A stretch of 64,000 nucleotides of DNA from Anaerolineales bacterium (GCA_015075185.1 JABTUW010000004.1:1144761-1208760), one strand, 5' to 3'. Positions 4,220-20,779 are shown, counted from the stretch's first letter. Notes: generated by a model not told the origin, from the sequence alone. Made by a program: numbers and translations.

Positions 4220-4251
4220 TCAAGTAGCAAAATCTTGAGCCGAGTTAAATT

Positions 4252-4569
4252 ATGATAAAAATACCAGTCCAAACGAAAAAAGAAATTCTTGCGCTTATCC
4301 AGGCAAATCAAGAAAGCATTAAGACCTTTGGGGTGAAGAAACTCGGCTTGTTTGGTTCTTTTATGCGCAATCAGCAACGCAGTGAGAGCGATATTGATTT
4401 ACTGGTCGAATTTGAGCCGGGCCAGAAGAGCTTTGATAACTTTATGCAGCTCTCATTTTTGCTGGAAGATATTCTCCAACGGCCTGTGGAATTGGTGACG
4501 CTCGAGTCGCTCAGTCCCTACATTGCCCCTTATATTACCCAAGAGGTAGAGTATGTTATCTCCGCTTGA
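4252..4569 (+). CDS. MntA-type minimal nucleotidyltransferase (type VII toxin-antitoxin antitoxin family), apparently orphan
   Basis: 105 aa with the GLFGSFMRNQQRSESDIDLLVEF (GSxxRG...DxD) NTase motif. No intact HepT/DUF86 partner follows. Confidence 0.8.
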   Translation: MIKIPVQTKKEILALIQANQESIKTFGVKKLGLFGSFMRNQQRSESDIDLLVEFEPGQKSFDNFMQLSFLLEDILQRPVELVTLESLSPYIAPYITQEVEYVISA

Positions 4570-4586
4570 GTACCTGAGATTAAACA

Positions 4587-5027
4587 ATGCGCAAAGGCAT
4601 CGAAATCGAGGAACTGCGCCCCGGCAGCGGGCCGACCGCCGAACGAGGCCAGACCGCCACCATTCGCTACACCGGCTTCTTGAATCACGGGGATAAATTC
4701 CAGGAGAACGTTACCTGCACCTTCCGGGTGGGCAGCCGGGAGGTGATTCTCGGCCTGGCCTATGGCGTCGAGGGGATGCGGGTGGGCGGATTGCGGCGGG
4801 TGCGGGTCAGTCCGCACCTGGCTTATGGTTCGGCGGGCGTTTCCGGCCTGATCCCGGCGAACGCCGTGCTGATTTTTGAGATTGAGCTGCTCGAAGTATC
4901 GGACGCTGGGCAGCGGCATAGCATGGACCAAATGGAACAAAGCCATGCCGAAGGTTATGCTCAACACCCGGTTGAGCCGGGCGAGTTCGACGCCTGGGAA
5001 ACCGAACAAACCTGGGACGAAGAATGA
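4587..5027 (+). CDS. FKBP-type peptidyl-prolyl cis-trans isomerase with acidic C-terminal tail
   Basis: 146 aa. RYTGFL..G.KF, GLAYGVEGMRVGG.RRV.V.P.LAYG and LIFEIELLEV are FKBP_C hallmarks. High GC resumes exactly here. Confidence 0.85.
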   Translation: MRKGIEIEELRPGSGPTAERGQTATIRYTGFLNHGDKFQENVTCTFRVGSREVILGLAYGVEGMRVGGLRRVRVSPHLAYGSAGVSGLIPANAVLIFEIELLEVSDAGQRHSMDQMEQSHAEGYAQHPVEPGEFDAWETEQTWDEE

Positions 5028-5923
5028 TTCTTGTCACCGGCGGCGGCGGATTGATTGGGAGACGGGTCTGCGGGTTGTTAGCGGCCCACGGCTATGAGGT
5101 CGTCGCGGTTGATCGCAACAGGATTACCGGCCTGCCCTGCCAAACGGTCCAGGGCGATTTGACCAGCCAGGCGTTCCTGAATGAATTATTCCGCGGCTAT
5201 TCCTTTGCAGCCGTCGTCCATCTGGCCTCGCTGCTGAACACGGCTTCGCAAAAGCAGCCGCAAGAGGCGATGCGGGTGAATATCGGCGGCAGTCTTGGCT
5301 TGCTGGAGGCGGCGGCTCAAGCCCGTGTCCCAAAATTCATTTACGGCAGTTCCATCAGCGCCTACGGCTCAAAACCTTATGCCCAATATGGCGAGGTGGC
5401 GGAGTCCGAGCCAGCCTCGCCGGAAGATGTCTACGGCCTCTGCAAACGCTATGTTGAAATTGTAGGGGAGAGTTACCGGCAGCAACACGGGATGCAGTTT
5501 GTGGCTTTGCGCATTGCCTCGGTCATCAGCCCGGGAGCGATGCAGACTGCCTCGCCGTGGCGCTACGAGATTTTTGAAAAACTGAGGGTAAACCGGCCGG
5601 CCCCCATCCACTTTCCTTACCAGGCCGGCCAGAGATTTCCCCTGATTTACCTGGACGATGTGGCCGAAGTTATCAGGAGGTTCGTCGCCGAAACCCGGAT
5701 CGCCGAGACCATTTATAACACCCCCGCCGAAAATTGGCGTTTTGGCGAACTGGCGACCTATCTCCAAACGCTCAACAGCCAGATCGAATTTACTTATGGC
5801 TCGACGCCGGCGAGCGGTCTGCCGGAGGCAATCAACGGCTGCCGTTTTATCCATGAATTTGGCTTCAGCCCAATCCCGGTGAAGGAACGTCTGCGCTGCT
5901 TTCTCGAAGGGGGCGGCAATTAA
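5024..5923 (+). CDS. NAD-dependent epimerase/dehydratase family protein
   Basis: 299 aa. N-terminal Rossmann motif ILVTGGGGLIGRRV and catalytic YGLCK (YxxxK). ATGA overlap with the FKBP gene. Confidence 0.8.
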   Translation: MILVTGGGGLIGRRVCGLLAAHGYEVVAVDRNRITGLPCQTVQGDLTSQAFLNELFRGYSFAAVVHLASLLNTASQKQPQEAMRVNIGGSLGLLEAAAQARVPKFIYGSSISAYGSKPYAQYGEVAESEPASPEDVYGLCKRYVEIVGESYRQQHGMQFVALRIASVISPGAMQTASPWRYEIFEKLRVNRPAPIHFPYQAGQRFPLIYLDDVAEVIRRFVAETRIAETIYNTPAENWRFGELATYLQTLNSQIEFTYGSTPASGLPEAINGCRFIHEFGFSPIPVKERLRCFLEGGGN

Positions 5924-6003
5924 CCTTCCTGCCAATCACTTATTACTGTGATGCAGAAGGTTATCAGTGACAATATATTTGTACGCAACATCCTGGAATT
6001 TTT

Positions 6004-6828
6004 ATGCATCCGAAAATCACGCCAGGCGAACTCAGGCAGAGAATTAAAGAGCTGGAAAAGGAAAATCTCGACCTCAAAAACGAAGTCGAGGTTCTGCGGG
6101 AGGCCGCCGAAAAATATCAAACGATCTTTGAGACGGTCCCGACCTCGATCCAGGTGGTAGATAAAAACGGGATCATCGTCGAGGTCAACCCTTACCACCT
6201 TCGACAAATGGGTCGGGGCAAAACAACCAAACAGGACTATTTAAACCAACATATTTTGGACCGCCCCAGCATCGTTCGAGCCGGATTAATCGAAAAATAC
6301 AGGCGCGTGCTTGCCGGAGAAAAGATGGAGGAGTGGGAAGTCCATTTCCCCGTCACCAGCGGCGGCGTTAAAGACGCCTATTCCAACATTAGAGGAGCGC
6401 CCATTATACGGGATGGAGAAATTATTGGGGCGATTTTTATCTCAGAAGATGTGACGCAGCTCAAACAGGACCACGAAGAGTTAATCCGGCATCGCGAAAA
6501 ACTTGAAGAGTTGGTAGCGGCGCGGACCCAAGATTTGCAGGAGGCCTATCTCCAATTGCGAGAAGAGAATGCAGAACGCCGCAAAGCCGAAGAAGAAAAA
6601 GAAAAAATAATCGTCCAGCTTCAAGAAGCCCTGGCCAGAGTCAAAACATTGAGCGGCCTGCTGCCGATTTGCGCTTCGTGCAAAAAAATTCGGGATGATG
6701 ACGGCTATTGGTACCAGGTAGAAGTCTATATCAGAGACCATGCCGAGGTGGAATTTAGTCACAGCATCTGCCCCGAGTGTGTGAAAAAGTTATATCCAGA
6801 ATTTTATTCCGGCAGTGAAAAGCAATAA
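6004..6828 (+). CDS. PAS-domain sensor protein with coiled coils and a Cys-rich C-terminal module
   Basis: 274 aa: N-terminal coiled coil, PAS core (ETVPTSIQVVDKNGIIVEVNP...GAIFISEDVTQLK), second coiled coil, then LSGLLPICASCKKIRDDDGYWYQVEVYIRDHAEVEFSHSICPECVKKLYPE. Confidence 0.7.
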   Translation: MHPKITPGELRQRIKELEKENLDLKNEVEVLREAAEKYQTIFETVPTSIQVVDKNGIIVEVNPYHLRQMGRGKTTKQDYLNQHILDRPSIVRAGLIEKYRRVLAGEKMEEWEVHFPVTSGGVKDAYSNIRGAPIIRDGEIIGAIFISEDVTQLKQDHEELIRHREKLEELVAARTQDLQEAYLQLREENAERRKAEEEKEKIIVQLQEALARVKTLSGLLPICASCKKIRDDDGYWYQVEVYIRDHAEVEFSHSICPECVKKLYPEFYSGSEKQ

Positions 6829-6856
6829 ATTAAATCCTGCTTGAGGAGATTGATGG

Positions 6857-7912
6857 ATGAGCCTGAAAATCGAGCGTCTCCCCGCGCCGGTATGGGTGCG
6901 CCCGCTCATTCCGGTGGCGGCCATTATCGTGACGTTTTTGCTCACGGCCACGCTGGTGATGCTGGTCAAGGCCAACCCGCTGGAAGCTTATTATTACTTC
7001 CTGGTTGACCCGCTCTCCAGCCGGGTCAGCGCCATCGAGGTGCTGGTCAAGGCCACGCCGCTGCTGCTGACCGGCGCCGCCGTGACCTTTGCCTTTGCCG
7101 GCGGCTACTGGAACATCGGCGCGGAGGGACAGCTTTACGCCGGGGCCGTTGCCGCTACGGCGGTTGGCTTGCAGGTGCATGGCCTCTCGCCCTGGCTGGC
7201 CATTCCGGCCATGCTGATCGGCGGGTTTGCCGCAGGAATGCTTTGGGCCTTAATCCCGGCTTTAATGAAGATCAAATTAGCCATTGACGAGGTGGTGACG
7301 ACGTTATTACTCAATTCGGTGGCGCTGTTCGTTGTCAGTTTTCTGCTCAACGGCCTCTGGCGCAATCCCATCTCGCAGTGGCCGCAGTCGCCGGAGATCG
7401 CCCCGGCGGCGATTTTTCCCAAGCTCATTCCGCGCTCCCGGCTGCACCTGGGCTTTATCCTGGCAGTGATTATCATCGTCGTGCTGTGGTTTGTGCTGAC
7501 CCGCACCGCCTTTGGCATGCGCATGCGGGCGGTCGGCCTCGGGCCGGAAGCGGCCCGTTTTGCCGGGATCAACGTAGGCCGGACCATGCTCATTTCGGCC
7601 CTGGTCAGCGGCGGTATCGCCGGGCTGGCCGGCGTCAGCGAGGTGGCCGGGATCCATTATCACCTGATTGACGCCATTTCGCCGGGTTACGGCTATACCG
7701 GCATCATCATCGCCACCCTGGGCACGTTGAATGCCTGGGGCGTCGCCCTGGCGGCGCTGTTCATCGGTCTGATTGACACCGGCGCTCAGACGGTCAGCCG
7801 GGCGCTGGGTGTGCCTGCTTATCTCGGCGATGTGATCCAGGCGGCGCTGTTATTAGTCACGCTGGGGATGTTGTTATTGCAGAGTTACCGGATTCGCTGG
7901 AGAAGGAACTGA
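6857..7912 (+). CDS. ABC transporter permease (BMP/nucleoside importer type)
   Basis: 351-aa polytopic membrane protein of the BPD_transp_2 type. Matches the SBP and ATPase genes at 7-2713. Confidence 0.85.
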   Translation: MSLKIERLPAPVWVRPLIPVAAIIVTFLLTATLVMLVKANPLEAYYYFLVDPLSSRVSAIEVLVKATPLLLTGAAVTFAFAGGYWNIGAEGQLYAGAVAATAVGLQVHGLSPWLAIPAMLIGGFAAGMLWALIPALMKIKLAIDEVVTTLLLNSVALFVVSFLLNGLWRNPISQWPQSPEIAPAAIFPKLIPRSRLHLGFILAVIIIVVLWFVLTRTAFGMRMRAVGLGPEAARFAGINVGRTMLISALVSGGIAGLAGVSEVAGIHYHLIDAISPGYGYTGIIIATLGTLNAWGVALAALFIGLIDTGAQTVSRALGVPAYLGDVIQAALLLVTLGMLLLQSYRIRWRRN

Positions 7913-7936
7913 GGAGAAAAGTTTCCTCATTCTATA

Positions 7937-8005
7937 TGTCATTTCGACCGAAGGGAGAAATCCCTACCGAGTCTCGGGGGATTTCTCCCTTCGGTCGAAA
8001 TGACA
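7937..8005. repeat. Perfect 28-bp-arm inverted repeat between the two permease genes
   Basis: TGTCATTTCGACCGAAGGGAGAAATCCC (7937-7964) is the exact reverse complement of 7978-8005. The 13-nt loop is itself partly palindromic (ccgag-t-ctcgg). Confidence 0.9.
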
Positions 8006-8068
8006 GGCGGGAAATAATTCTTTCACAGGCCCCTAATTCCTACTCTTCCTGAAATTGGTGATTGACCT

Positions 8069-9016
8069 ATGGATCTCACTTTATTCCTAACCTTCCTCGT
8101 CGGTCTCATTGCCGCGACGCTGCGGGTGGCGACGCCGCTGGTTTACGCGACCATTGGCGAAGTCTATACCGAACGCGCCGGGATTTTGAATTTGGGTATT
8201 GAAGGGATTATGTTCTTGGGCGCGTTTATTGGCTTTGCCACAGCCTACAAGGCCAATGAGGCCGGCCTTGGCGGCTATTTGTGGCTGGGGCTGCTCGGCG
8301 CGTTGACGAGCGGGGTAGTAATGAGCCTGCTGATGGGCTTTTTCAGCGTGACGTTGGGGGTCAACCAGCACGTCTCCGGGCTGGGGATTACCTTGCTGAG
8401 TATGGGGCTGTCGCTGTTTGGGTTCCGGCTGGTTTTCGGCGAGAGTTCCGTTCTGCCTTCAATTGACCCGTTTGCCCAATTCTCGGTTTTTGGCAACCTG
8501 CCGGGGCTTGGCCCGATATTTAACCAATACCTGCTGACCTATATCGCCTTCATTGTCCTCGTCCCGCTGGCCTGGTGGATTTTGTATCATACCAGTTTTG
8601 GGCTGCAACTGCGCTCCGTGGGCGAAAATCCTGAAGCCGCCGACGCCGCCGGAGTTAATGTGTTTCGCACCCGTTACCTGGCCCTGGTCATCGGGGGGGC
8701 GTTGATGGCCGCAGGCGGGGCGTTCCTGTCGCTGGCGCAGTTGGGCGCGTTTTCGCCGGGGATTATCGCCGGGCGGGGCTGGGTTTGCATCGCCCTGGTC
8801 ATCTTTGCCAACTGGAACCCGGTGCGGGCCATGGGGGGCGCGCTCCTCTTCGGTGGGGTTGCTGCCTTGCAGCTTCGCCTGCAAACCACCGGCCTGAATT
8901 TACCCTACGAGGTCTTTCTGGCCCTGCCCTACCTGGCCACGATTATCGCCCTGGCCATCGCCGGACGCAACGCGGCCTATCCGGGGGCGTATCTCAAGCC
9001 GTACCGGCGGGAATAA
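8069..9016 (+). CDS. ABC transporter permease (second permease of the BMP importer)
   Basis: 315-aa polytopic membrane protein, paralogous in type to 6857-7912. Confidence 0.85.
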   Translation: MDLTLFLTFLVGLIAATLRVATPLVYATIGEVYTERAGILNLGIEGIMFLGAFIGFATAYKANEAGLGGYLWLGLLGALTSGVVMSLLMGFFSVTLGVNQHVSGLGITLLSMGLSLFGFRLVFGESSVLPSIDPFAQFSVFGNLPGLGPIFNQYLLTYIAFIVLVPLAWWILYHTSFGLQLRSVGENPEAADAAGVNVFRTRYLALVIGGALMAAGGAFLSLAQLGAFSPGIIAGRGWVCIALVIFANWNPVRAMGGALLFGGVAALQLRLQTTGLNLPYEVFLALPYLATIIALAIAGRNAAYPGAYLKPYRRE

Positions 9017-9019
9017 ACT

Positions 9020-9096
9020 CATTGACAATTAATCATTGACCGTTGATTATTGGCAATTGCCAACAGTCAATTGTCAACGGTTAATTGTCAATTTTT
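9020..9096. promoter_or_regulatory. AT-rich nested palindrome cluster upstream of the deaminase gene
   Basis: ATTGACAATTAA (9021-9032) pairs with TTAATTGTCAAT (9081-9092). TTGACCGTTGA pairs with TCAACGGTTA. The centre is the perfect palindrome TTGGCAATTGCCAA (9050-9063). Confidence 0.35.
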
Positions 9097-9115
9097 AATT
9101 ACTTGGAGGACACCT

Positions 9116-9556
9116 ATGGACGAATTCATGCAAGCCGCCATCGAAGAAGCCCGGCAAGGGCTGGTCGAGGGCGGCATCCCCATCGGCTCGGTGCTGGTCA
9201 TTGACGGCAAAATTGTTGGGCGGGGGCACAACCGCCGGGTTCAGAAAGGCAGCGCCATTTTGCATGCCGAGATGGACTGTCTGGAAAATGCCGGCCGGCT
9301 CACGGCCAAAGATTACCAGCGCGCCGTTTTGTATTCCACCCTCTCGCCGTGCGACATGTGCAGCGGCACGGCCCTGCTCTACAAAATCCCCAAAATTGTC
9401 ATCGGCGAGAATCGAACTTTTCAAGGGCCGGAAGATTATGTCCGCTCGCGGGGCGTGGAGCTGGTCATCTTGAATAACCAGGAATGCATCCAGTTGATGC
9501 GCGATTTCATCGCCGCCCGGCCGGAGTTGTGGAACGAGGATATCGGGGAAGATTAG
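9116..9556 (+). CDS. Fcy1-like zinc cytosine deaminase (CDA fold)
   Basis: HAEMDCLENAG and SPCDMCSGT zinc motifs. The C-terminal RPELWNEDIGED closely recalls yeast Fcy1 (RPQDWFEDIGE). GGAGGA RBS lies before the ATG at 9116; the track ORF from 9050 is an N-terminal over-extension. Confidence 0.8.
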   Translation: MDEFMQAAIEEARQGLVEGGIPIGSVLVIDGKIVGRGHNRRVQKGSAILHAEMDCLENAGRLTAKDYQRAVLYSTLSPCDMCSGTALLYKIPKIVIGENRTFQGPEDYVRSRGVELVILNNQECIQLMRDFIAARPELWNEDIGED

Positions 9557-9662: not shown

Positions 9663-11042
9663 GTGACCGCAAAAACTCAACCTTCCTGGCTTAGATTTAG
9701 TTTAATAGCAACCTTGACCGGCAGCCTGGGCTTCATCCTCTGGAAAACTCTACGGTATGGCTACCGTCTAGCCCGGCGGCCGGCGCTGGCCTCCCACCCC
9801 CTGCCTGCCGACATTGCCAAGCACCAAACGGTTGAGGCTAAAGCGCTGCTCATTGCTTCAGCCAACTTGCGGGCCGGGATCGAAAAACGCCGCCTCCCTG
9901 ACGCTCAGGAAAAATTGGTTTTGTGCGCCGGGCTGCGCAATTTCCGTGAACCGTGGGCGCGTGATCTGGGCTTTGCCAGTTTCGGCCTGGTCGAGTTGAA
10001 CGAATTTCAAGCTACCCGTGAGTCGCTGGAAGTTTTTTTGATCAACCAGCGGCCTTCCGGCCAATTTCCGGTCAAGGTTCATTCCACGACGGTGCTGGAT
10101 CGTTACCTGCACTCGCTGCTCAAGCGCGAGCAGCCGGTTGATGCGCCCCTTCGCCCCAAGTACATCACCGCCCATAATACGATTTCGCTGGATGGCAACG
10201 CCCTGTTGGTGATTGCTGTGCTTAACTATGCCGCACGCTCCGGCGACGCCGAATTTGGACGCCGCCATTGGCCGGCGCTCAAGCGAGCGATCGCCTGGCT
10301 GGAAACCCATGCCCTGGAAGCGGACGGACTGCTGCACCAGGCGCCCTTCACCGACTGGGCCGACAGCATCGCCCGGCAGGGGCGGGTCTTGTATACTAAC
10401 GTCGTCTATTGGAAAGCCCTGGCCGAATTAGCCCTGCTGGCTCCCCTCTGTGGAGAGTCGGCAGACCAGGGTTACTTTACCGCCAAAGCCAGGCAACTCA
10501 AGCAGGCCCTCAATGACCATTTCTGGCGTGAGAAGCTGGGCTACTTTGTCACCAATCACATTTTTGATAATTTGAGCAGCAGCGGCAATTTGCTGGCCAT
10601 CGCCTGGGGTTTGACCACCCCGGTCCAGGCTCACGCCATTTTGGACAACATGAGCCGCTTCAAAATGGCCGAGCCGGTCCCGACGCAGGTGGTGCATCGA
10701 GCTTATCCCAACAAATTTATCGCTTTGGAAAATCGCCTGGGAGGACTGGCCCATTATCACACCAGTGCGGCCTGGCTGTGGCTGGGGGCGTGGCACGTTA
10801 TTGCTCTGGCCCGCATGGAGCGCCTGGCGGAAGCAGAGGCGCTGCTTTATCGTATTTCAAAAGTTATTGTCCGGGATGGCGCTGTCCACGAAGTTTACGC
10901 CGCCGATGGACATTATCTATCAACCTTTTGGTACACCTCCGAAGTGCCGCTCACCTGGAGCGCCGGCATGGTCGTTCACGCCTACCAGGTGTATCAGCGG
11001 CATCTTCAGGGAATCCCCGTTAGCCCAAAACAAGCTTTATAA
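9663..11042 (+). CDS. Six-hairpin glycosidase-like protein (amylo-alpha-1,6-glucosidase / GDE_C-like), N-terminal membrane anchor
   Basis: 459 aa with a GTG start and one N-terminal TM helix. Motifs such as FREPWARDLGFA, TDWADS and LWLGAWH are typical of (alpha/alpha)6 GDE_C-like enzymes. The family call is tentative. Confidence 0.5.
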   Translation: MTAKTQPSWLRFSLIATLTGSLGFILWKTLRYGYRLARRPALASHPLPADIAKHQTVEAKALLIASANLRAGIEKRRLPDAQEKLVLCAGLRNFREPWARDLGFASFGLVELNEFQATRESLEVFLINQRPSGQFPVKVHSTTVLDRYLHSLLKREQPVDAPLRPKYITAHNTISLDGNALLVIAVLNYAARSGDAEFGRRHWPALKRAIAWLETHALEADGLLHQAPFTDWADSIARQGRVLYTNVVYWKALAELALLAPLCGESADQGYFTAKARQLKQALNDHFWREKLGYFVTNHIFDNLSSSGNLLAIAWGLTTPVQAHAILDNMSRFKMAEPVPTQVVHRAYPNKFIALENRLGGLAHYHTSAAWLWLGAWHVIALARMERLAEAEALLYRISKVIVRDGAVHEVYAADGHYLSTFWYTSEVPLTWSAGMVVHAYQVYQRHLQGIPVSPKQAL

Positions 11043-12680
11043 CCGCGTCTCCTCGACGGTCCACCCCATCTGTTCCAATGGGGAAGATCCGCTTTCGGCC
11101 ACGCGCGGATGAGGAATTTCAACCTCCAACAGCAGGCCGCTGCCCGCTTGATTTTGCAGTTTCAACCGCCCGCCGAGCAGAGTAACCCGCTCGCTGATAC
11201 CCAGCAGGCCGTAATGCCCGCTGGCCGACAGGTGGGCCAGGTCAAAGCGATGGTTGAGGCCCTGTCCATCATCGGCCAGAGCGATCAACAGCGTACGGGG
11301 CGAAGTGTGCTTCAAACAAATTTGAACGGTGCTGGCCTGGGCGTGTTTGCGGATATTGCTCAAGCCTTCCTGGACAATGCGAAAGATGGACAGTTCAGTC
11401 GGCTCCGGCAAACGGCCCAGGTTAGGGTCCAATTCCAGATTAACCGCTATGCCGGTCCGCTCGCTCCAATCACGGGTGTAGGAGCGCAGGGCCGCACCCA
11501 GGCCCAGGCTATCAATCGTGGGCGGGCGTAGATTGCCGCAAATCCGGCGTAAATCATCTACCAGCATTCTGATACTGTCCCGAATATCGGCAATTTCATC
11601 TTTTAGCGGCTCGGTCACGACCTCGTCGGCGCCTACATCTTCCAGGCGATAGTTGATAGAGAGTAAATCCTGAATGACCTGGTCGTGAATTTCGCGGGCC
11701 AGGTGCTTGCGTTCCTGCTCCCGTTCGGTCAGCAGGCGGCGCTGCGCGTCTTGCAAGGCCAGGTTGGCCCGGTCCAGGGCAGTCACCTGGGTGGCTAATT
11801 GGTCAATCAGTTGTTGGTTCATGTTATCTTGAGCGGCCAAATCTCGCTCCAGCAACTGCTGTTGATGGTAGAGGTACTCGGCCTGCTGCCTGGCCCGATA
11901 GTAACTATCCAAGGCCCAGATCGCCGGAGTGAGTTGCTGGCGGTCAGTGGTGCCGACCAGGGCCGCTACCACTTCTTCGCGGGTGACTTCGTCGGTGCGG
12001 TAATTAGCCACCCAATGACCCTGCCGCAGCACGATAATACGGTCGGTCACGGCAAAGAGGTGGTCCAGGCTGTTGCTGCAAAAGATGACTGCAATCCCCT
12101 GCTGCTGCCAGCTCTGGATCAACGACAGCAGTTTCTGCTGGTAAGAGTAGCTCAATAGGACGGTCGGCTCGTCAATGATGATGAGTTTGGCCGGGCGGGT
12201 CATAGTGCGGGCAATGGCAATCATCTGCCGTTTTTCACTCGACAAATTAGCTACCTTTTCATGCAGAGAGTTGAACGGCATATCCAACTGGCGCAGGATC
12301 TGCGCCGCCTCTTTATCCATCCAGCGGCGGTTGGGCACTTTCCACCAATGGACGACGTTCGGCCAGCCAATCTCGCTGCCCAGGAAGATATTGCTGGTAA
12401 TGTCGAGCTGGTCGGCCAGATCTGGCTTCTGGTGGATCACTTCAATGCCCAGGGCGCGGGCCGGGAACGGCCATTCTAACTGCTGGCCGGCAAAGTAGAT
12501 TTCGCCTTCGCTGGGAGCATACAGGCCGGCTAAGAGCATAGTCAGCACCGTTTTACCGGAACCGCTGCGTGCAGCCAGGCCGACTACTTCCCCCGGAGCA
12601 ATCTCAAAACTGACCTGCTGCACGGCCAGCAAGTTGCCAAAGTTTTTGGATAGATTGACGACCTTTAAGAGTGGATTCAT
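11037..12680 (-). CDS. Fusion protein: degenerate ABC nucleotide-binding domain, coiled coil, NarL-class histidine kinase (HisKA_3 + HATPase_c)
   Basis: 547 aa uninterrupted. NBD motifs: ARSGSGKT (Walker A-like), IIIDEPT (Walker B), LSSEKRQ in place of LSGGQ, and N in place of the H-loop His. Kinase motifs: H-box HLAREIHDQV, N-box EGLSNIRKHA, DDGQG, GLLGISERV. ATGA overlap with the upstream permease gene. Confidence 0.85.
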   Translation of the reverse strand: MNPLLKVVNLSKNFGNLLAVQQVSFEIAPGEVVGLAARSGSGKTVLTMLLAGLYAPSEGEIYFAGQQLEWPFPARALGIEVIHQKPDLADQLDITSNIFLGSEIGWPNVVHWWKVPNRRWMDKEAAQILRQLDMPFNSLHEKVANLSSEKRQMIAIARTMTRPAKLIIIDEPTVLLSYSYQQKLLSLIQSWQQQGIAVIFCSNSLDHLFAVTDRIIVLRQGHWVANYRTDEVTREEVVAALVGTTDRQQLTPAIWALDSYYRARQQAEYLYHQQQLLERDLAAQDNMNQQLIDQLATQVTALDRANLALQDAQRRLLTEREQERKHLAREIHDQVIQDLLSINYRLEDVGADEVVTEPLKDEIADIRDSIRMLVDDLRRICGNLRPPTIDSLGLGAALRSYTRDWSERTGIAVNLELDPNLGRLPEPTELSIFRIVQEGLSNIRKHAQASTVQICLKHTSPRTLLIALADDGQGLNHRFDLAHLSASGHYGLLGISERVTLLGGRLKLQNQAGSGLLLEVEIPHPRVAESGSSPLEQMGWTVEETRL

Positions 12681-13729
12681 TCCAAATTTTTACGGCGCTG
12701 CCAATAATCAAAGAGAATCGCCACGAGGATCATGGCCCCGATGGCTACGGCTTGCCAGTAAGCCGAAAAGCCCAATAAGACCAGGCCATTGCGCGTGATC
12801 TGCATCAGAACCGCTCCCAGGAGCACCCCCACTACGCTGCCCTGTCTGCCGAACAGGCTGGTTCCGCCGATGACGACGGCGGCAATCACATCAAGCTCAT
12901 AGCCTAACGCCGCCGTTGGAGCGGCTACCCCCAGCCGGGCGGTCATCAACAAACCTCCTACCGCAGCCAACAAGCCGCACAGCGTGTAAACCAATATTCT
13001 GATGCGGACCACATTGACCCCCGAAACCAGCAGGGCGCGCTCACTGCTCCCCAGGGTGTAGATATAACGCCCCAGGACGGTCTGGCCGAGCAGCAGGCTC
13101 ACCAAAACGGTCAAGCCTAACATAATCAGAACCGGCAGGGGAATGGCCCAGGTCCACACGGGCAGTTTATAAATACCCAGCATGCCAAAACCGGGAGGAA
13201 GGTCGCGGACCGGCCAGCCGCCGGTCAAGCCAAAGGCCAATCCGCGGGCAATACTCATCGTACCCAGGGTAATAATATAGGAGGGCAGTTTGACTCGTCC
13301 CACCAGGATACCGTTGACCCAGCCCGCAGCTCCCCCGGTTAGGAGGCCGGCGCTAATAGCCACGGGGACGGGCATGCCTGCCTGCAAACACAACGCACTG
13401 ATTAGCCCGGCGAGAGCCATCACCGCCCCCACCGACAGATCCTCCCCCCCAATGATAATGACCATACTTTCCCCAAACGCCGCAATCGCAATCCATGAAC
13501 AGGCACGGGCCACATTAAACAAATTATTGCTGGTCAAAAAGGTGCGGGTGTTCAGGCTTAAAAAGGCGCTCACCAGTAACAACAGGATCAAGACAGACAG
13601 ATACCGGTGTTCAACCAGCGTGCGCCGGTACCACCGGCCTACCCCACTGGCCCAGGCCAACCGCCGGCCGGGGGTTGATAAAGATGCCGCTTGCTCACTC
13701 ATCAGGTCCTCACCCCACCAGGTCATCAA
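12677..13729 (-). CDS. RbsC-like (BPD_transp_2) ABC permease paralog in the sensor operon
   Basis: 350-aa polytopic protein. Shares the verbatim run [35 protein letters not shown] with the permease at 19766-20779. A start at 13702 (ATG after GGTGAGGA) is at least as likely as 13729. Confidence 0.85.
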   Translation of the reverse strand: MMTWWGEDLMSEQAASLSTPGRRLAWASGVGRWYRRTLVEHRYLSVLILLLLVSAFLSLNTRTFLTSNNLFNVARACSWIAIAAFGESMVIIIGGEDLSVGAVMALAGLISALCLQAGMPVPVAISAGLLTGGAAGWVNGILVGRVKLPSYIITLGTMSIARGLAFGLTGGWPVRDLPPGFGMLGIYKLPVWTWAIPLPVLIMLGLTVLVSLLLGQTVLGRYIYTLGSSERALLVSGVNVVRIRILVYTLCGLLAAVGGLLMTARLGVAAPTAALGYELDVIAAVVIGGTSLFGRQGSVVGVLLGAVLMQITRNGLVLLGFSAYWQAVAIGAMILVAILFDYWQRRKNLE

Positions 13730-14765
13730 TTACCTGGCGCAATACCGTCGCATCCAGGTCCTTTTTATCCAGAAATGCTACGGCCCCGGCTTCCAGACCC
13801 CGCCGGTGAAATTCACGGTCAGGATAAGCGCTAATCAAAACGATCCGCGAGAGGGGCGATAAAGTTTTGATCCGGCGCGCGCAATGAATTCCATCCTCAT
13901 CGCCCAGGACGACATCCACCAGGACCAACTGCGGTGCAATCTGCTCGGCTAAATGAGTTGCTTCTCTTATATTCTCAGCCTCATAAATCATGGCCTGAGC
14001 GCACACCCTGCCAACCATCCGCCGCAATTGATTGCGATAACGAGCATTATCGTCTACCAAAAGCATGGTGATCTGTTCTGCCTCGAGGAAACGGTCAGCT
14101 ACCAGTTCGCTCCCAGCCTGCTGGCCGGATAAAGCCAACAGCTCGGGATGCTGGTTTACATAATTGGCGGCTTCCAGGCGGCTCTGCACATTGAGCTGCC
14201 GATAGAGGCGAGTCAGATGATTTTCCACAGTTTTAACGCTCAAGTTCATGCGCCGGGCGATGGCATGGTTGTCAAAGCCCTGCTGGAGCAGGTGCAGCAA
14301 ATCACGTTGGCGCGGGGTCAAGGAGAGAGCCAGGTGGGTAGGTGGGCCGCCCTGGACCAGTTTATCAACCAGGCGGCTGCTAATCCACTTTTCTCCCGCC
14401 AAAACCCGGCGAACTGCCAGGCGCAAATCGCTCAAGGGCTGGTCTTTGAGGTGATAACCGTCAACACCGGCGCTCAGTAATCCTTGCACGTAAACCCGGT
14501 CATCATAAGCGCTAACCACCAAAATCTTCATCACCGGGTACATCGTCCGAATCTGGCGAATGGCAGAAAACGGCTCAAAACTGGGCATAGTGACATCGAG
14601 GAGGAGGCAGTCAGGGTGAGCCTGAGCCAGCGCCGTAAAAAGGGTCGGGCCATCCGACACCTCGCCGACCACTTCCAGGTCGGGCAGCTCACGCAAGGCA
14701 TTGCGAATGCCAGCGCAAACAACGGCATGATCGTCTGCCAGCAGAACACGGGTCGTACTCATCAT
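13710..14765 (-). CDS. Response regulator with REC - LuxR/NarL HTH - REC architecture
   Basis: 351 aa. REC1 has VLLADDH...LLLDVTMP. The HTH is LTPRQRDLLHLLQQGFDNHAIARRMNLSVKTVENHLTRLYRQL. REC2 has MLLVDDN...LVLVDVVL...LISAY. Confidence 0.85.
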   Translation of the reverse strand: MMSTTRVLLADDHAVVCAGIRNALRELPDLEVVGEVSDGPTLFTALAQAHPDCLLLDVTMPSFEPFSAIRQIRTMYPVMKILVVSAYDDRVYVQGLLSAGVDGYHLKDQPLSDLRLAVRRVLAGEKWISSRLVDKLVQGGPPTHLALSLTPRQRDLLHLLQQGFDNHAIARRMNLSVKTVENHLTRLYRQLNVQSRLEAANYVNQHPELLALSGQQAGSELVADRFLEAEQITMLLVDDNARYRNQLRRMVGRVCAQAMIYEAENIREATHLAEQIAPQLVLVDVVLGDEDGIHCARRIKTLSPLSRIVLISAYPDREFHRRGLEAGAVAFLDKKDLDATVLRQVIDDLVG

Positions 14766-14847
14766 TCAAATTATACCACTATTAGCCCATCATGCCCATC
14801 CTCTCATTTGGATCGAAATAGGGGGATTTCCCCTATTGTTGGAGGGG

Positions 14848-15058: not shown

Positions 15059-18004
15059 ATGAAAACTAAGTTATGGTTTGTATTGGCTTTGTTGGTTATC
15101 CTGGCGACAATTGCGCCTCAGCCGACTCAGGCTTCCAGACTTGCTCAGACAGGCTTTGACAAGGACAAAATCCTGGAAGACGGCAAGATCACCATCGCCT
15201 GGATCCCCAAGGCGTTGAACAACCCCGTCTTTGAAATCGGCCGGGTTGGCGCGGAAACCAAGGCCGCCGAACTGACCGAAGCCGGTCCGTACGAGATCGA
15301 GATCAACTACACCGCCTCGGTGGCTTCGGACGCGGCGGAACAGGCCCGTGTCATCGAGGATGCCATTGCCTCAGGAGTAGAAGCCATCGGCGTTTCCTGC
15401 AACGACCCCACCGGCTGTATTGATCCGATCAACAAGGCGATTGAGGCCGGCATTCCGGTGATGACCTGGGACTCTGACTCGCCTGACAGCGACCGCTTCA
15501 CCTACCTCGGCGTGGACAACTACGAGGGCGGGAAGGCTGCCGCTGACCTGATGAAGAAGGCCCTGCCCGACGGCGGGAAAGTGGCCCTGCTGACCGGTGT
15601 GCCGGGCGCGTTCAACCTCGAAGAGCGCATCCGCGGCTTCAAGGATGGCGTCGAGGGGACCAACATCGAGGTTATCGCTACCGTTGCCTGCGACGACGAC
15701 ATCAACAAGGGCGTCCAGGTGGTTGAGGAGACGATGCAGGCCAATCCTGACCTCAACGGCTGGTTCTTTGTCGGCCTGTGGCCGCTCTTCGCCGAGCGCG
15801 GCTCAATGCCGCTCTGGGAAGAGGCCAGCGCCTCCGGCAATCTCAAGACTGTGGCCTTCGACACCCTGCCGGTCGAACTTGAGTACCTCCAGGAAGGGCT
15901 GCTCTACGGGCTGGTCGGGCAGAAGTACTGGGGCTGGGGCTATGACACCACCCAGATGATCTACGACACCATCGTGGACGGCAAGCAGTTCGACTCCTTC
16001 ACCAACTCCGGCATGGACATCGTCGGCCCGGGTAATGTGGATATAATGGCCGAAGCCTGGGCGAACAATGATTTCACTAAGCCGCTGCCGCTGGGCTTCC
16101 CGACTTTTGACAAGGACAAAATCCTGGAAGACGGCAAGATCACCATTGCCTGGATTCCCAAAGCGTTGAACAACCCTGTCTTTGAAGTTGGCCGGGTTGG
16201 CGCGGAAACCAAGGCCGCCGAACTGACCGAAGCCGGCCCATACGAGGTCGAGATCAACTACACCGCCTCGGTCGCTTCCGACGCGGCAGAACAGGCCCGC
16301 GTTATCGAAGATGCCGTCGCCGCGGGGGTAGAAGCCATCGGCGTTTCCTGCAACGACCCCACCGCCTGCGTGGACCCGATCAATAATGCCATTGACGCCG
16401 GCATTCCGGTGATGACCTGGGACTCCGACTCGCCTGATAGCGATCGTTTCACCTACCTGGGTGTGGACAACTATGAGGGTGGGAAGGCCGCCGCCGAACT
16501 GATGATCCAAGCCCTGCCGGATGGCGGGAAGGTGGCGCTGCTGACCGGCGTGCCCGGCGCGTTCAACCTCGAAGAGCGCATCCGCGGCTTCAAGGACGGC
16601 GTTGCCGGTACCAACATCGAGGTTGTCGCTACCGTCGCCTGCGATGACGACATCAACAAGGGTGTCCAGGTGGTTGAGGAGACAATGCAGGCCAATCCTG
16701 ACCTCAACGGCTGGTTCTTTGTCGGCCTGTGGCCGCTCTTCGCCGAGCGCGGCTCAATGCCGCTGTGGGAAGAGGCCAGCGCCTCCGGCAATCTCAAGAC
16801 TGTGGCCTTCGACACCCTGCCGGTCGAACTTGAGTACCTCCAGGAAGGGCTGCTCTACGGGCTGGTCGGGCAGAAGTACTGGGGCTGGGGCTATGACACC
16901 ACCCAGATGATCTACGACACCATCGTGGACGGCAAGCAGTTCGACTCCTTCACCAACTCCGGCATGGACATCGTCGGCCCGGGTAATGTGGATATAATGG
17001 CCGAAGCCTGGGCGAACAATGATTTCACTAAGCCGCTGCCGCTGGGCTTCCCGACTTTTGACAAGGACAAAATCCTGGAAGACGGCAAGATCACCATTGC
17101 CTGGATTCCCAAAGCGTTGAACAACCCTGTCTTTGAAGTTGGCCGGGTTGGCGCGGAAACCAAGGCCGCCGAACTGACCGAAGCCGGCCCATACGAGGTC
17201 GAGATCAACTACACCGCCTCGGTCGCTTCCGACGCGGCAGAACAGGCCCGCGTTATCGAAGATGCCGTCGCCGCGGGGGTAGAAGCCATCGGCGTTTCCT
17301 GCAACGACCCCACCGCCTGCGTGGACCCGATCAATAATGCCATTGACGCCGGCATTCCGGTGATGACCTGGGACTCCGACTCGCCTGATAGCGATCGTTT
17401 CACCTACCTGGGTGTGGACAACTATGAGGGTGGGAAGGCCGCCGCCGAACTGATGATCCAAGCCCTGCCGGATGGCGGGAAGGTGGCGCTGCTGACCGGC
17501 GTGCCCGGCGCGTTCAACCTCGAAGAGCGCATCCGCGGCTTCAAGGACGGCGTTGCCGGTACCAACATCGAGGTTGTCGCTACCGTCGCCTGCGATGACG
17601 ACATCAACAAGGGTGTCCAGGTGGTTGAGGAGACAATGCAGGCCAATCCTGACCTCAACGGCTGGTTCTTTGTCGGCCTGTGGCCGCTCTTCGCCGAGCG
17701 CGGCTCAATGCCGCTCTGGGAAGAGGCCTCCCTGGCCGGGATGAAGACCGTTGCCTTCGACACCCTCCCGGTCGAGCTCGACTATCTGAAGGAAGGGCTG
17801 CTCTACGGACTGGTCGGCCAGAAGTACTGGGGCTGGGGCTATGACACCACCCAGATGATCTATGACACCATCGTGGATGGCAAGCAGTTTGAGCCTTTCA
17901 CCAACTCCGGCATGGACATCGTCGGCCCCAATAACGTTGACGTGATGTCTGAAGCCTGGGCGAACAACGATTTCACCAAAGAGTTACCACCGGCGTTTGA
18001 GTAA
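15059..18004 (+). CDS. Secreted triple-tandem periplasmic sugar-binding protein (three PBP1/RbsB-like units in one polypeptide)
   Basis: 981 aa with one N-terminal signal peptide, then three ~317-aa units, each starting FDKDKILEDGKITIAWIPKALNNPVF and ending ...AWANNDFTK. Confidence 0.85.
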   Translation: MKTKLWFVLALLVILATIAPQPTQASRLAQTGFDKDKILEDGKITIAWIPKALNNPVFEIGRVGAETKAAELTEAGPYEIEINYTASVASDAAEQARVIEDAIASGVEAIGVSCNDPTGCIDPINKAIEAGIPVMTWDSDSPDSDRFTYLGVDNYEGGKAAADLMKKALPDGGKVALLTGVPGAFNLEERIRGFKDGVEGTNIEVIATVACDDDINKGVQVVEETMQANPDLNGWFFVGLWPLFAERGSMPLWEEASASGNLKTVAFDTLPVELEYLQEGLLYGLVGQKYWGWGYDTTQMIYDTIVDGKQFDSFTNSGMDIVGPGNVDIMAEAWANNDFTKPLPLGFPTFDKDKILEDGKITIAWIPKALNNPVFEVGRVGAETKAAELTEAGPYEVEINYTASVASDAAEQARVIEDAVAAGVEAIGVSCNDPTACVDPINNAIDAGIPVMTWDSDSPDSDRFTYLGVDNYEGGKAAAELMIQALPDGGKVALLTGVPGAFNLEERIRGFKDGVAGTNIEVVATVACDDDINKGVQVVEETMQANPDLNGWFFVGLWPLFAERGSMPLWEEASASGNLKTVAFDTLPVELEYLQEGLLYGLVGQKYWGWGYDTTQMIYDTIVDGKQFDSFTNSGMDIVGPGNVDIMAEAWANNDFTKPLPLGFPTFDKDKILEDGKITIAWIPKALNNPVFEVGRVGAETKAAELTEAGPYEVEINYTASVASDAAEQARVIEDAVAAGVEAIGVSCNDPTACVDPINNAIDAGIPVMTWDSDSPDSDRFTYLGVDNYEGGKAAAELMIQALPDGGKVALLTGVPGAFNLEERIRGFKDGVAGTNIEVVATVACDDDINKGVQVVEETMQANPDLNGWFFVGLWPLFAERGSMPLWEEASLAGMKTVAFDTLPVELDYLKEGLLYGLVGQKYWGWGYDTTQMIYDTIVDGKQFEPFTNSGMDIVGPNNVDVMSEAWANNDFTKELPPAFE
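15155..18001 (+). repeat. 951-bp tandem repeat x3 (coding); 15734-17728 is about 2.1 copies with a single mismatch
   Basis: Unit starts at 15155, 16106 and 17057. 15734-16777 equals 16685-17728 except for C/G at 15814/16765. Confidence 0.9.
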
Positions 18005-18072: not shown

Positions 18073-18139
18073 TCTTGGAACACACCGGTTCTGCTTGCCC
18101 CTAGCCTCGTCTTGCGTGTTGTGTGTTTCGTAATGAAAA

Positions 18140-18175
18140 TTCGGAGTGCAAAAACTATAGTTTTTGCACTCCGAA
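18140..18175. promoter_or_regulatory. Perfect 36-bp palindrome between the binding-protein and ATPase genes
   Basis: TTCGGAGTGCAAAAACTA | TAGTTTTTGCACTCCGAA. No T-tract on the + strand, so likely a partial terminator or mRNA-stabilising hairpin that sets the SBP:transporter ratio. Confidence 0.45.
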
Positions 18176-18207
18176 AAAGCTACTCTCGAAGGTGTGAGGA
18201 GTCAACC

Positions 18208-19728
18208 TTGAACACAACCCCATTACTGGAAATGCGTGGCGTTTCTAAAGCCTTTCCCGGCGTGCAGGCACTGGATAACGTAGATTTTGAAGTATACCCT
18301 GGCGAGGTAGTGGCCTTGCTCGGTGAGAATGGTGCAGGCAAGTCTACCTTGATGAAGATTTTGTCCGGCGCCTATCATATGGATCAGGGCGAAATTCGCC
18401 TGCGAGGGGAACAGGTCACGCCGCAAAATCCGCACCATGCTCAGAAACTGGGCATCTCCATCATCTACCAGGAATTCAATCTAACCCCTAATCAGAGCGT
18501 CGCCACCAATATTTTCCTGGGCCGCGAACCCAAAGAGCAAGGTCCAGGCCGGTTGTTCCAATTTGTTGACCGCAATTATATGCGCCGGGAGGCGGTCAAG
18601 CTGCTGGCCCAAGTTGGCGCGCGCTTTTCACCCGATGCGCTGGTGCGTAATCTGTCGGTCGCCGAACAGCAGATGGTCGAGATTGCCAAAGCCCTGGCCG
18701 AAAAAGCCGAGGTAATTATCATGGACGAGCCGACCTCTGCGCTGGGCGAAGAGGAAGTCGTGGTGCTCTTTGACATCATCAAGTCGTTGAAAGAGCAGGG
18801 GCTGGCGATCATTTTCATCACTCACCGCATGGAAGAAGTGTTCCGCGTCACCGACCGGATTATTATTTTCCGCGATGGCCGGCGCGTCGGCGGGATGCCG
18901 ATTGGTGAAGCAACCACCGAAAAGATAATTGCGCTCATGGTCGGCCGTCCACTGGAAGAAGTCTTTCAACATAGTGATGGACAAAAGGGCGATGTGGTCC
19001 TGGAAGTGCGCGGCCTGACCCGGCGCGGGGTCATTGAAGATGTCAGTTTTGCGCTGCGTCGTGGCGAGATTCTGGGGCTGGCCGGGTTGGTGGGCGCGGG
19101 CCGGACTGAAACAGTGCGGGCCATTTTTGGGGCCGACCCGCTGGATGCGGGAGAAATTTTGATTGACGGTAAACGGATCAATATTGACTCCCCAGAGACG
19201 GCGGTGAGAGCCGGACTAGCCCTGGTCCCAGAGAGCCGCCAGATACAGGGGTTGATGCTCATTCACAGTGTCGAGCGTAATATAGCCGTTCCTAATTTGG
19301 ACTGGCTGTTCCCCAATCGCCTGGTTGACCAGCAAAAAACACGCGCCCTGGGCCAACAATATGTGGACCGGCTGAATATCCGCACCCCTGGCCTTGCCCA
19401 GAAAGTGATGTTTTTGTCCGGCGGAAATCAGCAGAAAGTGGTGCTGGCCAAGTGGCTGGCGACCAACCCAAAAGTGTTGATCCTGGACGAACCGACCCGG
19501 GGCATTGATGTGGGGGCTAAGGCCGAAGTTCATGGGATTATGAACAATCTGGCCTTACAGGGCATCGGCATTATAATGATTTCCTCAGAAATGCCCGAGG
19601 TGCTGGCTATGAGCGACCGCATTGTGGTCATGTGCGAAGGCCGGGTGTCGGGCATTTTAGACCGGGCTGAGGCTACCCAGGAACGGATTATGGCTTATGC
19701 CAGCGGTCATGTGGCCGAGCAAGTCTGA
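18208..19728 (+). CDS. Sugar ABC transporter ATP-binding protein (RbsA-like, two NBDs)
   Basis: NBD1 has GENGAGKST, LSVAEQQ and IIMDEPT. NBD2 has LSGGNQQK and LILDEPT. A TTG at 18208 preceded by AGGAG is the likely start; the track ORF from 18112 runs through the palindrome. Confidence 0.85.
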   Translation: MNTTPLLEMRGVSKAFPGVQALDNVDFEVYPGEVVALLGENGAGKSTLMKILSGAYHMDQGEIRLRGEQVTPQNPHHAQKLGISIIYQEFNLTPNQSVATNIFLGREPKEQGPGRLFQFVDRNYMRREAVKLLAQVGARFSPDALVRNLSVAEQQMVEIAKALAEKAEVIIMDEPTSALGEEEVVVLFDIIKSLKEQGLAIIFITHRMEEVFRVTDRIIIFRDGRRVGGMPIGEATTEKIIALMVGRPLEEVFQHSDGQKGDVVLEVRGLTRRGVIEDVSFALRRGEILGLAGLVGAGRTETVRAIFGADPLDAGEILIDGKRINIDSPETAVRAGLALVPESRQIQGLMLIHSVERNIAVPNLDWLFPNRLVDQQKTRALGQQYVDRLNIRTPGLAQKVMFLSGGNQQKVVLAKWLATNPKVLILDEPTRGIDVGAKAEVHGIMNNLALQGIGIIMISSEMPEVLAMSDRIVVMCEGRVSGILDRAEATQERIMAYASGHVAEQV

Positions 19729-19765: not shown

Positions 19766-20779
19766 ATGTCTTCTACCGCTAAATCATCAGCTATCAGCCG
19801 TGATGGCGCAACAACGGGTGGAACACGCTTGCGCCGCATCTTTCAAGCTCAGGAAATCGGCATTTTTCTGGTTTTACTTTTAATGGGCGCTGTTCTGGCC
19901 TGGCAAACCGAGGGAAAATTTTTAGACATCAACCGCAACCTGTTCAATGTCCTGCGGGCCTTTTCCTGGATTGCTATCAGCGCCTTTGGGCAGATTCTGG
20001 TCATTATCACCGCCGGAATTGATCTCTCGGTCGGTTCGACCATGGCCCTGTCCGGTATGCTTGCCGCCCTGGCAATGACCTCCTGGGGCTTGCCGGTTGT
20101 GCCGGGGGTGATCGTCGGTCTGCTGACCGGGGTCATGATCGGCCTGCTGAACGGCTTGTTGATCAGCAAGGCCAAGCTGCCCCCCTTTATTGCCACCCTG
20201 GGCCTGATGAGTATTGCCCGCGGTATCTGTTACGGCGTGGCGAAAGGGCAGCCGGTTCGCGGCTTACCCAAGGAGTTTAATCTTCTGGGGCAGTATGACT
20301 TGCCGGTATTCGGTTTCGGCGTGCCGCTGCCGGTCATTGTGATGTTTGTTCTGGCGATTATCATGTCGCTGTTTCTCACCCGGACCGTCTGGGGTTATCG
20401 CATCTATGCGCTGGGCGGTAATGAGCAGGCGGCGGGTCTATCCGGCATCAACACGGGCCGCATCAAGATCCTGGTCTACACCCTATGCGGCTTGCTCACG
20501 GCCCTGGGCGGCCTGCTGATGACGGCTCGCCTGGGGGTAGCGGCGCCTACGGCTGCGTTGGGCTACGAGTTGGATGTCATTGCCGCCGTGGTGATTGGTG
20601 GGACCAGCCTGGCCGGTGGGGAAGGCACAATCCTGGGCGTGCTCATCGGTGCAGCGATTATGCAGGTGCTCCGCAACGGCTTGGTCCTGCTGGGCTTTGA
20701 CCCTTACTGGCAGCCGGCGGCGATTGGCCTGGTCATTATCCTGGCCATCACGCTGGATCAACTGCGCAAACGACGATGA
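19766..20779 (+). CDS. Sugar ABC transporter permease (RbsC-like)
   Basis: 337-aa polytopic protein of the BPD_transp_2 type. Confidence 0.85.

Follow-up and report, generated by a model that had tools for sequence, protein, structure and literature searches.

A histidine kinase fused to an importer-type ABC nucleotide-binding domain in Anaerolineales: a probable binding-protein-dependent receptor built from sugar-importer parts

Why should the nucleotide-binding domain (NBD) of an ATP-binding cassette (ABC) importer be joined, in a single polypeptide, to a histidine kinase? The question is raised by a three-gene operon on the minus strand of a 64,000-nucleotide stretch of DNA from an Anaerolineales bacterium (GCA_015075185.1, JABTUW010000004.1:1144761-1208760), hereafter the window. 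The operon consists of RR3 (13710–14765), which codes for a response regulator; permS (12677–13702), which codes for a 341-residue RbsC-like permease paralog of the BPD_transp_2 family; and NBD-HK (11037–12680), which codes for a soluble protein of 547 residues made up of an ABC NBD, a long helix and a HisKA_3 kinase. An earlier note on this DNA, based on the sequence alone, had proposed that docking of a binding protein on the permease is relayed through the NBD to the fused kinase, which in turn controls a neighbouring transporter operon. The comparative evidence presented here backs the relay, whereas control of the transporter operon is less well supported than autoregulation. Taken together, the data make it probable that the RR3-permS-NBD-HK operon encodes a binding-protein-dependent sensor kinase receptor that was built from an ABC sugar importer.

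The open reading frame of NBD-HK is uninterrupted, in agreement with the earlier description. Pfam profile searches identify in the single polypeptide the three domains that had been predicted for it, all with scores exceeding the gathering scores: ABC_tran (PF00005) at residues 21–173 (E 3.4e-26, 92.9 bits, cut-off 25), HisKA_3 (PF07730) at residues 323–387 (E 1.2e-11, 45.5 bits) and HATPase_c (PF02518) at residues 430–524 (E 1.1e-6, 29.4 bits). The motifs that had been quoted are likewise all present, namely ARSGSGKT, the Q-loop IHQ, LSSEKRQ and IIIDEPT in the NBD, and REIHD, EGLSNIRKHA, DDGQG and GLLGISERV in the kinase; the histidine of the H-loop is replaced by an asparagine, Asn203, in the sequence FCSNSL. 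No transmembrane (TM) segment was detected in the protein (maximum KD19 of 1.15).

Chloroflexota assemblies contain more than 230 protein clusters with this architecture. In a first homology search, ABC_tran and HisKA_3 were found together in 120 of 120 proteins among the matches listed, most of them also with HATPase_c, at identities of 67–98%; these relatives, where named, belong to Chloroflexota, Anaerolineae or Anaerolineales and derive from NCBI, JGI, ENA and Logan. A second search yielded about 116 further full-length clusters that form a deeper clade, and among the 120 matches listed the same two domains, again mostly together with HATPase_c, occur in all but three (the protein P0146 and two fragments). 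Scans of genomes and metagenomes located full-length relatives, 53–88% identical, at 85 loci, the genome matches being all from Chloroflexota (Caldilineaceae, Anaerolineales and Chloroflexaceae). The family is nevertheless compact, since clustering at 50% leaves only about five full-length representatives. That the gene is an assembly chimera of two genes, as the earlier note had feared, or else a frameshift fusion or a decaying pseudogene, is ruled out for practical purposes: relatives from four data sources display the same domain order and a constant linker of 77 residues in hundreds of independent assemblies, down to 43% identity, and the key residues of the kinase are invariant. Judged by this conservation, the fusion is real and under selection.

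An AlphaFold2 (AF2) model of NBD-HK was computed from an alignment of 69 sequences (mean predicted local distance difference test score, pLDDT, of 78.7). It displays a normal NBD up to residue 242, a single helix spanning residues 247–352 that runs through His332, the second helix of the dimerization and histidine phosphotransfer (DHp) domain, and the catalytic domain. The linker helix proper (residues 247–322; 11715–11942, minus strand) begins at the motif TPxIWALDSYY and is continuous with DHp helix 1. The motif is family-specific, and its Trp255 is invariant. The spacing between Trp255 and His332 is 77 residues, equivalent to eleven heptads, in 277 of the 278 members that have detectable copies of both motifs, and it holds even in members that are only 43–48% identical to the query. 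A fixed length of this kind is expected if the helical register carries a signal.

The kinase core (11109–11714, minus strand) comprises the HisKA_3 segment, with His332, and the HATPase_c segment. Motif statistics were collected from 242 relatives that represent two clades. The phosphorylatable His332, Asn442 of the N-box, Gly472, Gly474 and the glycines of both G-boxes (DxGxG and GxxG) are invariant in 242 of 242 sequences. The kinase half matches the UhpB model of NCBIfam with an E value of 8e-31, and its features are those of the HisKA_3/NarL class: an H-box histidine in the DHp domain, N, G1 and G2 boxes, and a GerE-type regulator encoded in the same operon.

The NBD (residues 1–243; 11952–12680, minus strand) is of the NBD1 type. 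Its sequence identity to the canonical double-NBD ATPase of the CUT2 family that is encoded in the window (18112–19728, plus strand; two ABC_tran stretches in Pfam, with the true start probably downstream of 18112) is 38% for NBD1 and 28% for NBD2. The NCBIfam models for XylG, AraG and RbsA extend over ~500 positions; the NBD covers only ~3–242 and reaches 160.8 bits against an equivalog cut-off of 699. NBD-HK has one NBD and not two fused ones. These comparisons trace the domain to NBD1 of an RbsA-like ATPase of the CUT2 family. The origin also explains the signature motif LSSEK, which the earlier note had correctly called degenerate; it is not a fresh loss but an inherited trait, because NBD1 of CUT2 ATPases is already degenerate at this site. 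In the window ATPase the motifs read GENGAGKST, LSVAEQQ, DEPT and TH in NBD1, and GAGRT, LSGGNQQ, DEPT and SS in NBD2. The NBD is modeled with a pLDDT of about 90 and adopts the ABC fold, with Foldseek TM-scores (target-normalised) of 0.8–0.86 to PhnK, LptB and the NBDs of amino-acid importers. No chain combining an NBD with a kinase was found in the PDB, where the Foldseek search with the NBD-HK model matched NBD-only chains.

Across the family, the residues for nucleotide binding and those for hydrolysis have fared differently. The Walker A lysine is kept in 238 of the 242 relatives, the Walker B aspartate in 241 and the Q-loop glutamine in 232. By contrast, the H-loop histidine is found in 0 of 242, the position being occupied by Asn, Lys or Asp, and the catalytic glutamate is retained in 67 and replaced by Asp or Asn in 175. 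The family signature, LS[SGDN]EQRQ, departs from the canonical LSGGQ, and the full set of LSGGQ, Walker B glutamate and H-loop histidine is absent. In a homodimer of NBD-HK both composite sites would use the degenerate signature; by sequence, no consensus ATP site is possible. The Q-loop and the NIFLGxE segment that follows it are among the most conserved parts of the NBD. In ABC importers, the Q-loop region contacts the coupling helices of the transmembrane domains (TMDs). The overall pattern is that of a domain which appears to have been selected for nucleotide binding and coupling to a partner, not for hydrolysis, and which is carried by an active kinase.

The same residues bear on the idea that permS and NBD-HK form a transceptor, which would still import its substrate, albeit slowly, and would drive the kinase by this turnover as well. 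In the window protein, Lys43 of Walker A, Asp170-Glu171 of Walker B (in DEPT) and the Q-loop are indeed still in place, and the permease is intact and conserved. Yet not a single relative retains the H-loop histidine, the catalytic glutamate is substituted in the majority of them, both sites of the homodimer would be of the NBD1 type, and a complete canonical transporter is encoded alongside. We consider a transceptor of this sort very unlikely.

The gene permS is bound to NBD-HK by an overlap of stop and start codons (ATGA) that is real and is indicative of translational coupling. At its other end, the likely start of permS is the ATG at 13702, which is preceded by GAGGA and lies 7 nt past the stop codon of RR3; an NCBI protein of 341 residues with 100% identity backs this start. 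The earlier note had left open whether permS abuts or overlaps RR3, and with this start codon the two genes abut. The protein is a paralog, as had been claimed, of the permease of the true transporter, perm2 (19766–20779, plus strand), to which it is 57% identical. A run of 35 residues that is identical in the two permeases, and that had been read as a sign of selection, is indeed identical at the protein level with 21 differences in 105 nucleotides, but by itself it says little because it is located inside the most conserved stretch of the permease family.

AF2 models permS (pLDDT 71.5) with ten TM helices and with its N- and C-termini on the inner side of the membrane, and the short helices at residues 209–226 correspond to the EAA-like loop. 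In the permS proteins this loop has the consensus Y[TA]L[GA]SSE[RQ]AL[LR]VSGVN (SSERALLVSG in the window), with Leu224 present in 30 of 33, whereas the transporter permeases of the same loci carry GGN(P)EAAELSGI or GGNE[TQ]A[TA]ALSGIN. The divergence is consistent with adaptation of permS to another NBD. When permS and perm2 of the window are compared by eye, identity is about 52–53% in the cytoplasmic EAA loop and likewise in the external loop, with no asymmetry between them. A PDB sequence search with the permease returned no match, and no structure of an RbsC-type permease was found. The window transporter is complete without permS, which leaves NBD-HK as the only NBD of the locus that is available to this permease.

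Upstream of permS, the regulator RR3 is the first gene of the sensor operon and has the receiver (REC)–helix-turn-helix (HTH)–receiver organization reported before, given by Pfam as REC-GerE-REC. It is present in 24 of the 26 loci for which at least 3 kb of upstream and at least 1.5 kb of downstream sequence are available. Both REC domains keep the DD pair, the acceptor aspartate (D57 and D284), the serine and the lysine in 47 of 47 orthologs. The REC-HTH-REC layout is unusual, and a role of the second receiver as a phosphate sink or as a second input is conceivable.

The sensor operon and the transporter operon are transcribed divergently, in accordance with the earlier description: RR3, permS and NBD-HK lie on the minus strand, and the genes for the substrate-binding protein (SBP; 15059–18004), the double-NBD ATPase and perm2 lie on the plus strand. 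A palindrome, ATAGGGG-N5-CCCCTAT (ATAGGGGGATTTCCCCTAT; 14818–14836), is located between the divergent promoters and is a candidate RR3 operator. It is the sole match in the window at up to two mismatches, but 19 of 100 shuffled sequences also gave a single match (mean 0.20), which makes uniqueness alone a weak argument. Copies that agree at 10 or more of the 14 half-site positions were found in 15 of 16 RR3-upstream regions, and in 12 of those regions the centre of the palindrome is 59–75 bp from the RR3 ATG. From its position, the element resembles an operator through which RR3 regulates its own operon. That RR3 also controls the divergent transporter operon is plausible, but this has less support than autoregulation because the palindrome tracks the RR3 promoter while its distance to the transporter gene varies. 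A promoter-like site for the RR3-permS-NBD-HK operon is found at 14770–14798 (minus strand), with the composition TGGGCA-17-TGgTATAAT and an extended −10 (TGGTATAAT); the octamer TGGTATAA is kept in 10 of 16 intergenic regions from related loci. A gap of 4 nt separates the −10 hexamer from the RR3 ATG, and the mRNA of the sensor operon may for this reason be leaderless.

The association of NBD-HK with a dedicated permease was analyzed in 90 classified loci, 73 of which are informative because they include enough upstream sequence. The window arrangement, with permS directly upstream of NBD-HK (type A), occurs at 16 loci. At 15 loci the order is permS, SBP, NBD-HK (type B), and at 9 more an SBP gene precedes NBD-HK where the contig ends upstream (type B?). 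At 5 loci a permS-SBP fusion of ~710 residues lies ahead of NBD-HK (type C). The remaining loci have NBD-HK followed by SBP, ATPase and permease genes (type D, 9 loci), a transporter permease upstream of NBD-HK (type E, 5 loci), RR3 followed by NBD-HK alone (type F, 8 loci), an ATPase gene upstream (type G, 1 locus), or no recognisable gene upstream (untyped, 5 loci). A dedicated RbsC-type permease is thus linked upstream in at least 36 of the 73 informative loci. The earlier note had suggested looking for the three-gene cassette in related genomes; permease-linked kinase genes do recur there (types A, B and C), and RR3 nearly always adjoins.

The type-C fusions (L093, 3099–5216; L101, 7849–9993; also L097, L099 and L118) are informative about topology. 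They consist of BPD_transp_2, one extra hydrophobic helix and Peripla_BP_4, in this order. The extra helix is the SBP's own signal anchor and places the binding domain outside the cell, and the model of permS with ten TM helices and both ends inside agrees with this topology. Stand-alone SBPs linked to the sensor carry lipoboxes. The SBP of the window is orthologous to the type-B SBP encoded between permS and NBD-HK (55% identity in L005), and it is presumed to be the ligand receptor that the transporter and the sensor have in common.

In a neighbour-joining tree, gene order follows the clades, and orders in which permS is linked are found in deep as well as shallow branches; the tree gave no decision on whether the dedicated permease is ancestral or derived. 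The recurrence of permS and permS-SBP linkage in deep and shallow clades bears on a further alternative, namely that NBD-HK is a cytoplasmic sensor of ATP or of the energy state, in which the NBD binds nucleotide and gates the kinase with no membrane partner, the transporter genes being regulated targets. NBD-HK is a soluble protein, RR3 and NBD-HK stand alone in type F, and the kinase gene is an orphan in L003, all of which would suit a sensor of this type. Against it stand, in addition to the recurrent linkage, the translational coupling of NBD-HK to permS and the high conservation of the Q-loop and NIFLGxE segment, whose counterparts contact the TMD in importers; moreover, permS would be left without any NBD. 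A purely cytoplasmic sensor thus has very little probability.

Several observations weigh against a receptor with its own permease. About 30% of the informative loci (22 of 73; types D, E and F) lack an adjoining dedicated permease, the kinase gene either adjoining or lying within a complete transporter operon, or having RR3 as its only neighbour, so that the partner TMD may at times be the transporter's own. In L082 and L168 the operon order is SBP, canonical single-NBD ATPase, permease and NBD-HK, which places the kinase within the transporter operon. The permS of type B, which comes directly after another permease as in heterodimeric CUT2 systems, could be the second subunit of a heterodimeric transporter TMD. 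Residual hydrolysis may also be conceivable, given the Walker B glutamate of the window NBD-HK, and the placement of the palindrome relative to the RR3 promoter, at a varying distance from the transporter gene, does not favour the regulatory part of the proposal. Specificity-determining positions that would set permS apart from perm2 were sought with 6 transporter sequences; only 2 sites emerged, and the comparison was uninformative. Finally, we infer the physical contacts, the binding of ATP, the nature of the ligand and the direction of the response.

The loci without a second permease, the two operons with an embedded kinase gene and the type-B order are what would be expected of a transport-flux sensor, in which NBD-HK would associate with the active transporter, through either its permease or its ATPase, and signal how busy it is, in the way that BceS does for BceAB, permS being an additional or second TMD subunit. 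On the other hand, permS belongs to the regulator operon in all 16 type-A loci, the window included, while the transporter owns another permease; in L101, the permS-SBP fusion and NBD-HK lie beside a separate full transporter, encoded on the other strand; and the coupling loop of permS is unlike those of transporter permeases. In addition, a competent ATPase and a dead NBD on one TMD would poison transport. A flux sensor is accordingly unlikely. The single-NBD ATPases encoded near NBD-HK were also considered as the missing NBD2 half of the sensor, and were rejected because they are canonical and NBD1-like, with LSGGQ or FSGGE, DEPT, and SH or DH.

For the preferred interpretation, that of a receptor composed of SBP, permS and NBD-HK, the following mechanism can be proposed. 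A homodimer of permS would reside in the membrane, and two NBD-HK chains would dock by their NBDs onto its cytoplasmic EAA-like loops, while dimerising through the coiled coil of eleven heptads and the DHp domain. The membrane-anchored SBP, when loaded with sugar, would dock on permS from the outside and favour the ATP-bound, closed state of the NBD dimer, as in importers. Because both composite sites are degenerate, with a signature of the NBD1 type and no H-loop histidine, ATP would serve as glue and not as fuel, and the switching between open and closed NBDs would track the occupancy of the SBP. The motion of the NBD C-termini would then be transmitted through the helix of fixed length to His332, where it would shift the balance between kinase and phosphatase activities. 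Phosphoryl groups would pass to RR3, which would bind the palindrome at 14818–14836 and control its own operon and probably also the divergent SBP/transporter operon.

A second lineage suggests that such a solution is not confined to the NBD-HK family. Two distant clusters (P0142 and P0201) consist of an NBD, three PAS domains, HisKA_3 and HATPase_c; proteins of this family have ~845 residues, and its loci are L171 (7361–14778) and L169 (98–3351). In one operon the gene order is response regulator (REC-GerE), kinase, permease, permease and SBP, the latter being of the BPD_transp_2 and Peripla_BP_4 types, and no ATPase gene was found within 8 kb. To judge from domain order and gene context, the NBD-PAS-HisKA_3 family is an independent fusion with the same permease and SBP association. 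It may well be, then, that these proteins represent a new class of receptor, in which a whole importer has been turned into a ligand-gated kinase, closure of the NBDs without hydrolysis is signalled through a register-locked coiled coil of eleven heptads, and the design has arisen at least twice.

The earlier note knew of no characterised fusion of an NBD with a HisKA_3 kinase, and no paper in the library covered by our full-text searches describes one joining an NBD to a kinase either. A paper from 2024, in which the link between an S-component and a 5TMR protein is called the first prokaryotic transceptor, does not mention such a fusion (PMC11109136). Comparison with known systems reveals partial similarities in each case. 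In the BceAB-BceRS antimicrobial-peptide modules of Bacillus subtilis (cited in PMC11109136 and PMC9169098), an ABC transporter acts as the sensor of a two-component system and its cycling sets the activity of the kinase. However, the Bce permease is exporter-type and FtsX-like with a large extracellular domain, BceA hydrolyses ATP, the separate two-TM intramembrane kinase touches the TMD, and no binding protein takes part, whereas NBD-HK is a soluble kinase, without a TM segment, fused to a non-catalytic NBD, and belongs to an importer-type module with a BPD_transp_2 permease and an SBP. UhpABC of Escherichia coli also uses a transporter paralog to sense an external substrate, and a HisKA_3 kinase together with a NarL-family regulator to induce the transporter; but UhpC belongs to the major facilitator superfamily and UhpB is a separate membrane kinase, with no ABC parts, SBP or fusion. 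CbrA of Pseudomonas, in which a histidine kinase carries an SLC5 transporter domain (PMC7096432, PMC8871633), resembles NBD-HK in the covalent union of a transporter component with a kinase. There, the membrane domain of a secondary transporter is joined via STAC and PAS domains and still transports, while NBD-HK takes its fused part, a cytoplasmic motor domain, from a primary transporter whose membrane domain is encoded as a second chain; SLC5/SSS and STAC domains are not among the Pfam matches of NBD-HK, which are limited to PF00005, PF07730 and PF02518.

Other systems share the logic of reading an importer or a binding protein. In PstSCAB-PhoU-PhoR and in MalK-MalT, a signalling protein reads the state of an ABC importer NBD, but through non-covalent contacts and with fully active transporters and catalytic NBDs. 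In LuxP-LuxQ, TorT-TorS, ChvE-VirA and XylFII-LytS, a two-component kinase receives the signal from a periplasmic-type sugar or solute binding protein that touches the kinase's own periplasmic domain; NBD-HK has no membrane or external domain, so that relay by a permease is required. The ATPases RbsA, XylG and AraG, to whose first half the NBD aligns and with which it shares the degenerate NBD1 signature, contain two NBDs in about 500 residues, whereas in NBD-HK a helix and a kinase replace NBD2 and the H-loop histidine is missing. The NBD-HK module therefore resembles all these transporter-coupled systems but belongs to none of them, and its design is a fresh form of transporter-coupled two-component signalling.

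If this interpretation is correct, docking of the SBP, transmission through the TMD and closure of the NBDs would be separated from hydrolysis and read out as autophosphorylation of the kinase. The long-debated coupling step of importers would thereby become directly testable, in the CUT2 family, and the transceptor idea would be extended to the motor domain of primary transporters. Among database entries, hundreds that are annotated as 'ATP-binding cassette domain-containing protein' or 'ribose transport system permease' would have to be reclassified from transporters to signalling proteins. The module could also serve as a biosensor scaffold in which the SBP is exchanged and the NBD-kinase output retained.

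One of the exceptions in the second homology search, P0146, has an NBD-TPR-LuxR architecture in which a sensor-type NBD and linker (TPVVWALESY) precede a TPR region similar to that of MalT and an HTH of the LuxR type, an arrangement that recalls MalK-MalT. It was considered as a one-component cousin of NBD-HK but was not used: it is a single sequence, encoded on a 1981-bp JGI contig, that may be a chimera, and a homology search produced no second example.

The genes that surround the sensor operon offer a hint of the ligand. The SBP of the window has 981 residues, with an N-terminal signal or anchor followed by three tandem Peripla_BP_4 units in Pfam. A script-based comparison gave units of 317 residues each, which are 88–94% identical in DNA and repeat with a period of 951 nt; this degree of identity points to a recent tandem amplification. 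Multi-unit SBPs recur beside the sensor family, with three units in L090, four in L163 and two in L082, L166 and L167. The best NCBIfam match of the SBP is the rhamnose-binding protein RhaS, with a score below the cut-off. The transporter genes are followed by a class II aldolase gene (20809–21417, plus strand), and a six-hairpin glycoside hydrolase with rhamnosidase-like domains (9663–11042, plus strand) is convergent with NBD-HK and overlaps its stop by 6 nt. The match to RhaS and these two flanking genes give a weak hint that the ligand is possibly a rhamnose-like deoxy-sugar.

The first part of the window (7–9556, plus strand) is occupied by a Bmp/PnrA-type nucleoside ABC operon with genes for an SBP (7–1119), an ATPase (1214–2713), two permeases (6857–7912 and 8069–9016) and a deaminase (9050–9556). 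It is interrupted by genes that code for a TIR-domain protein (2843–4219), an NAD-epimerase (5024–5923) and a PAS protein (6004–6828).

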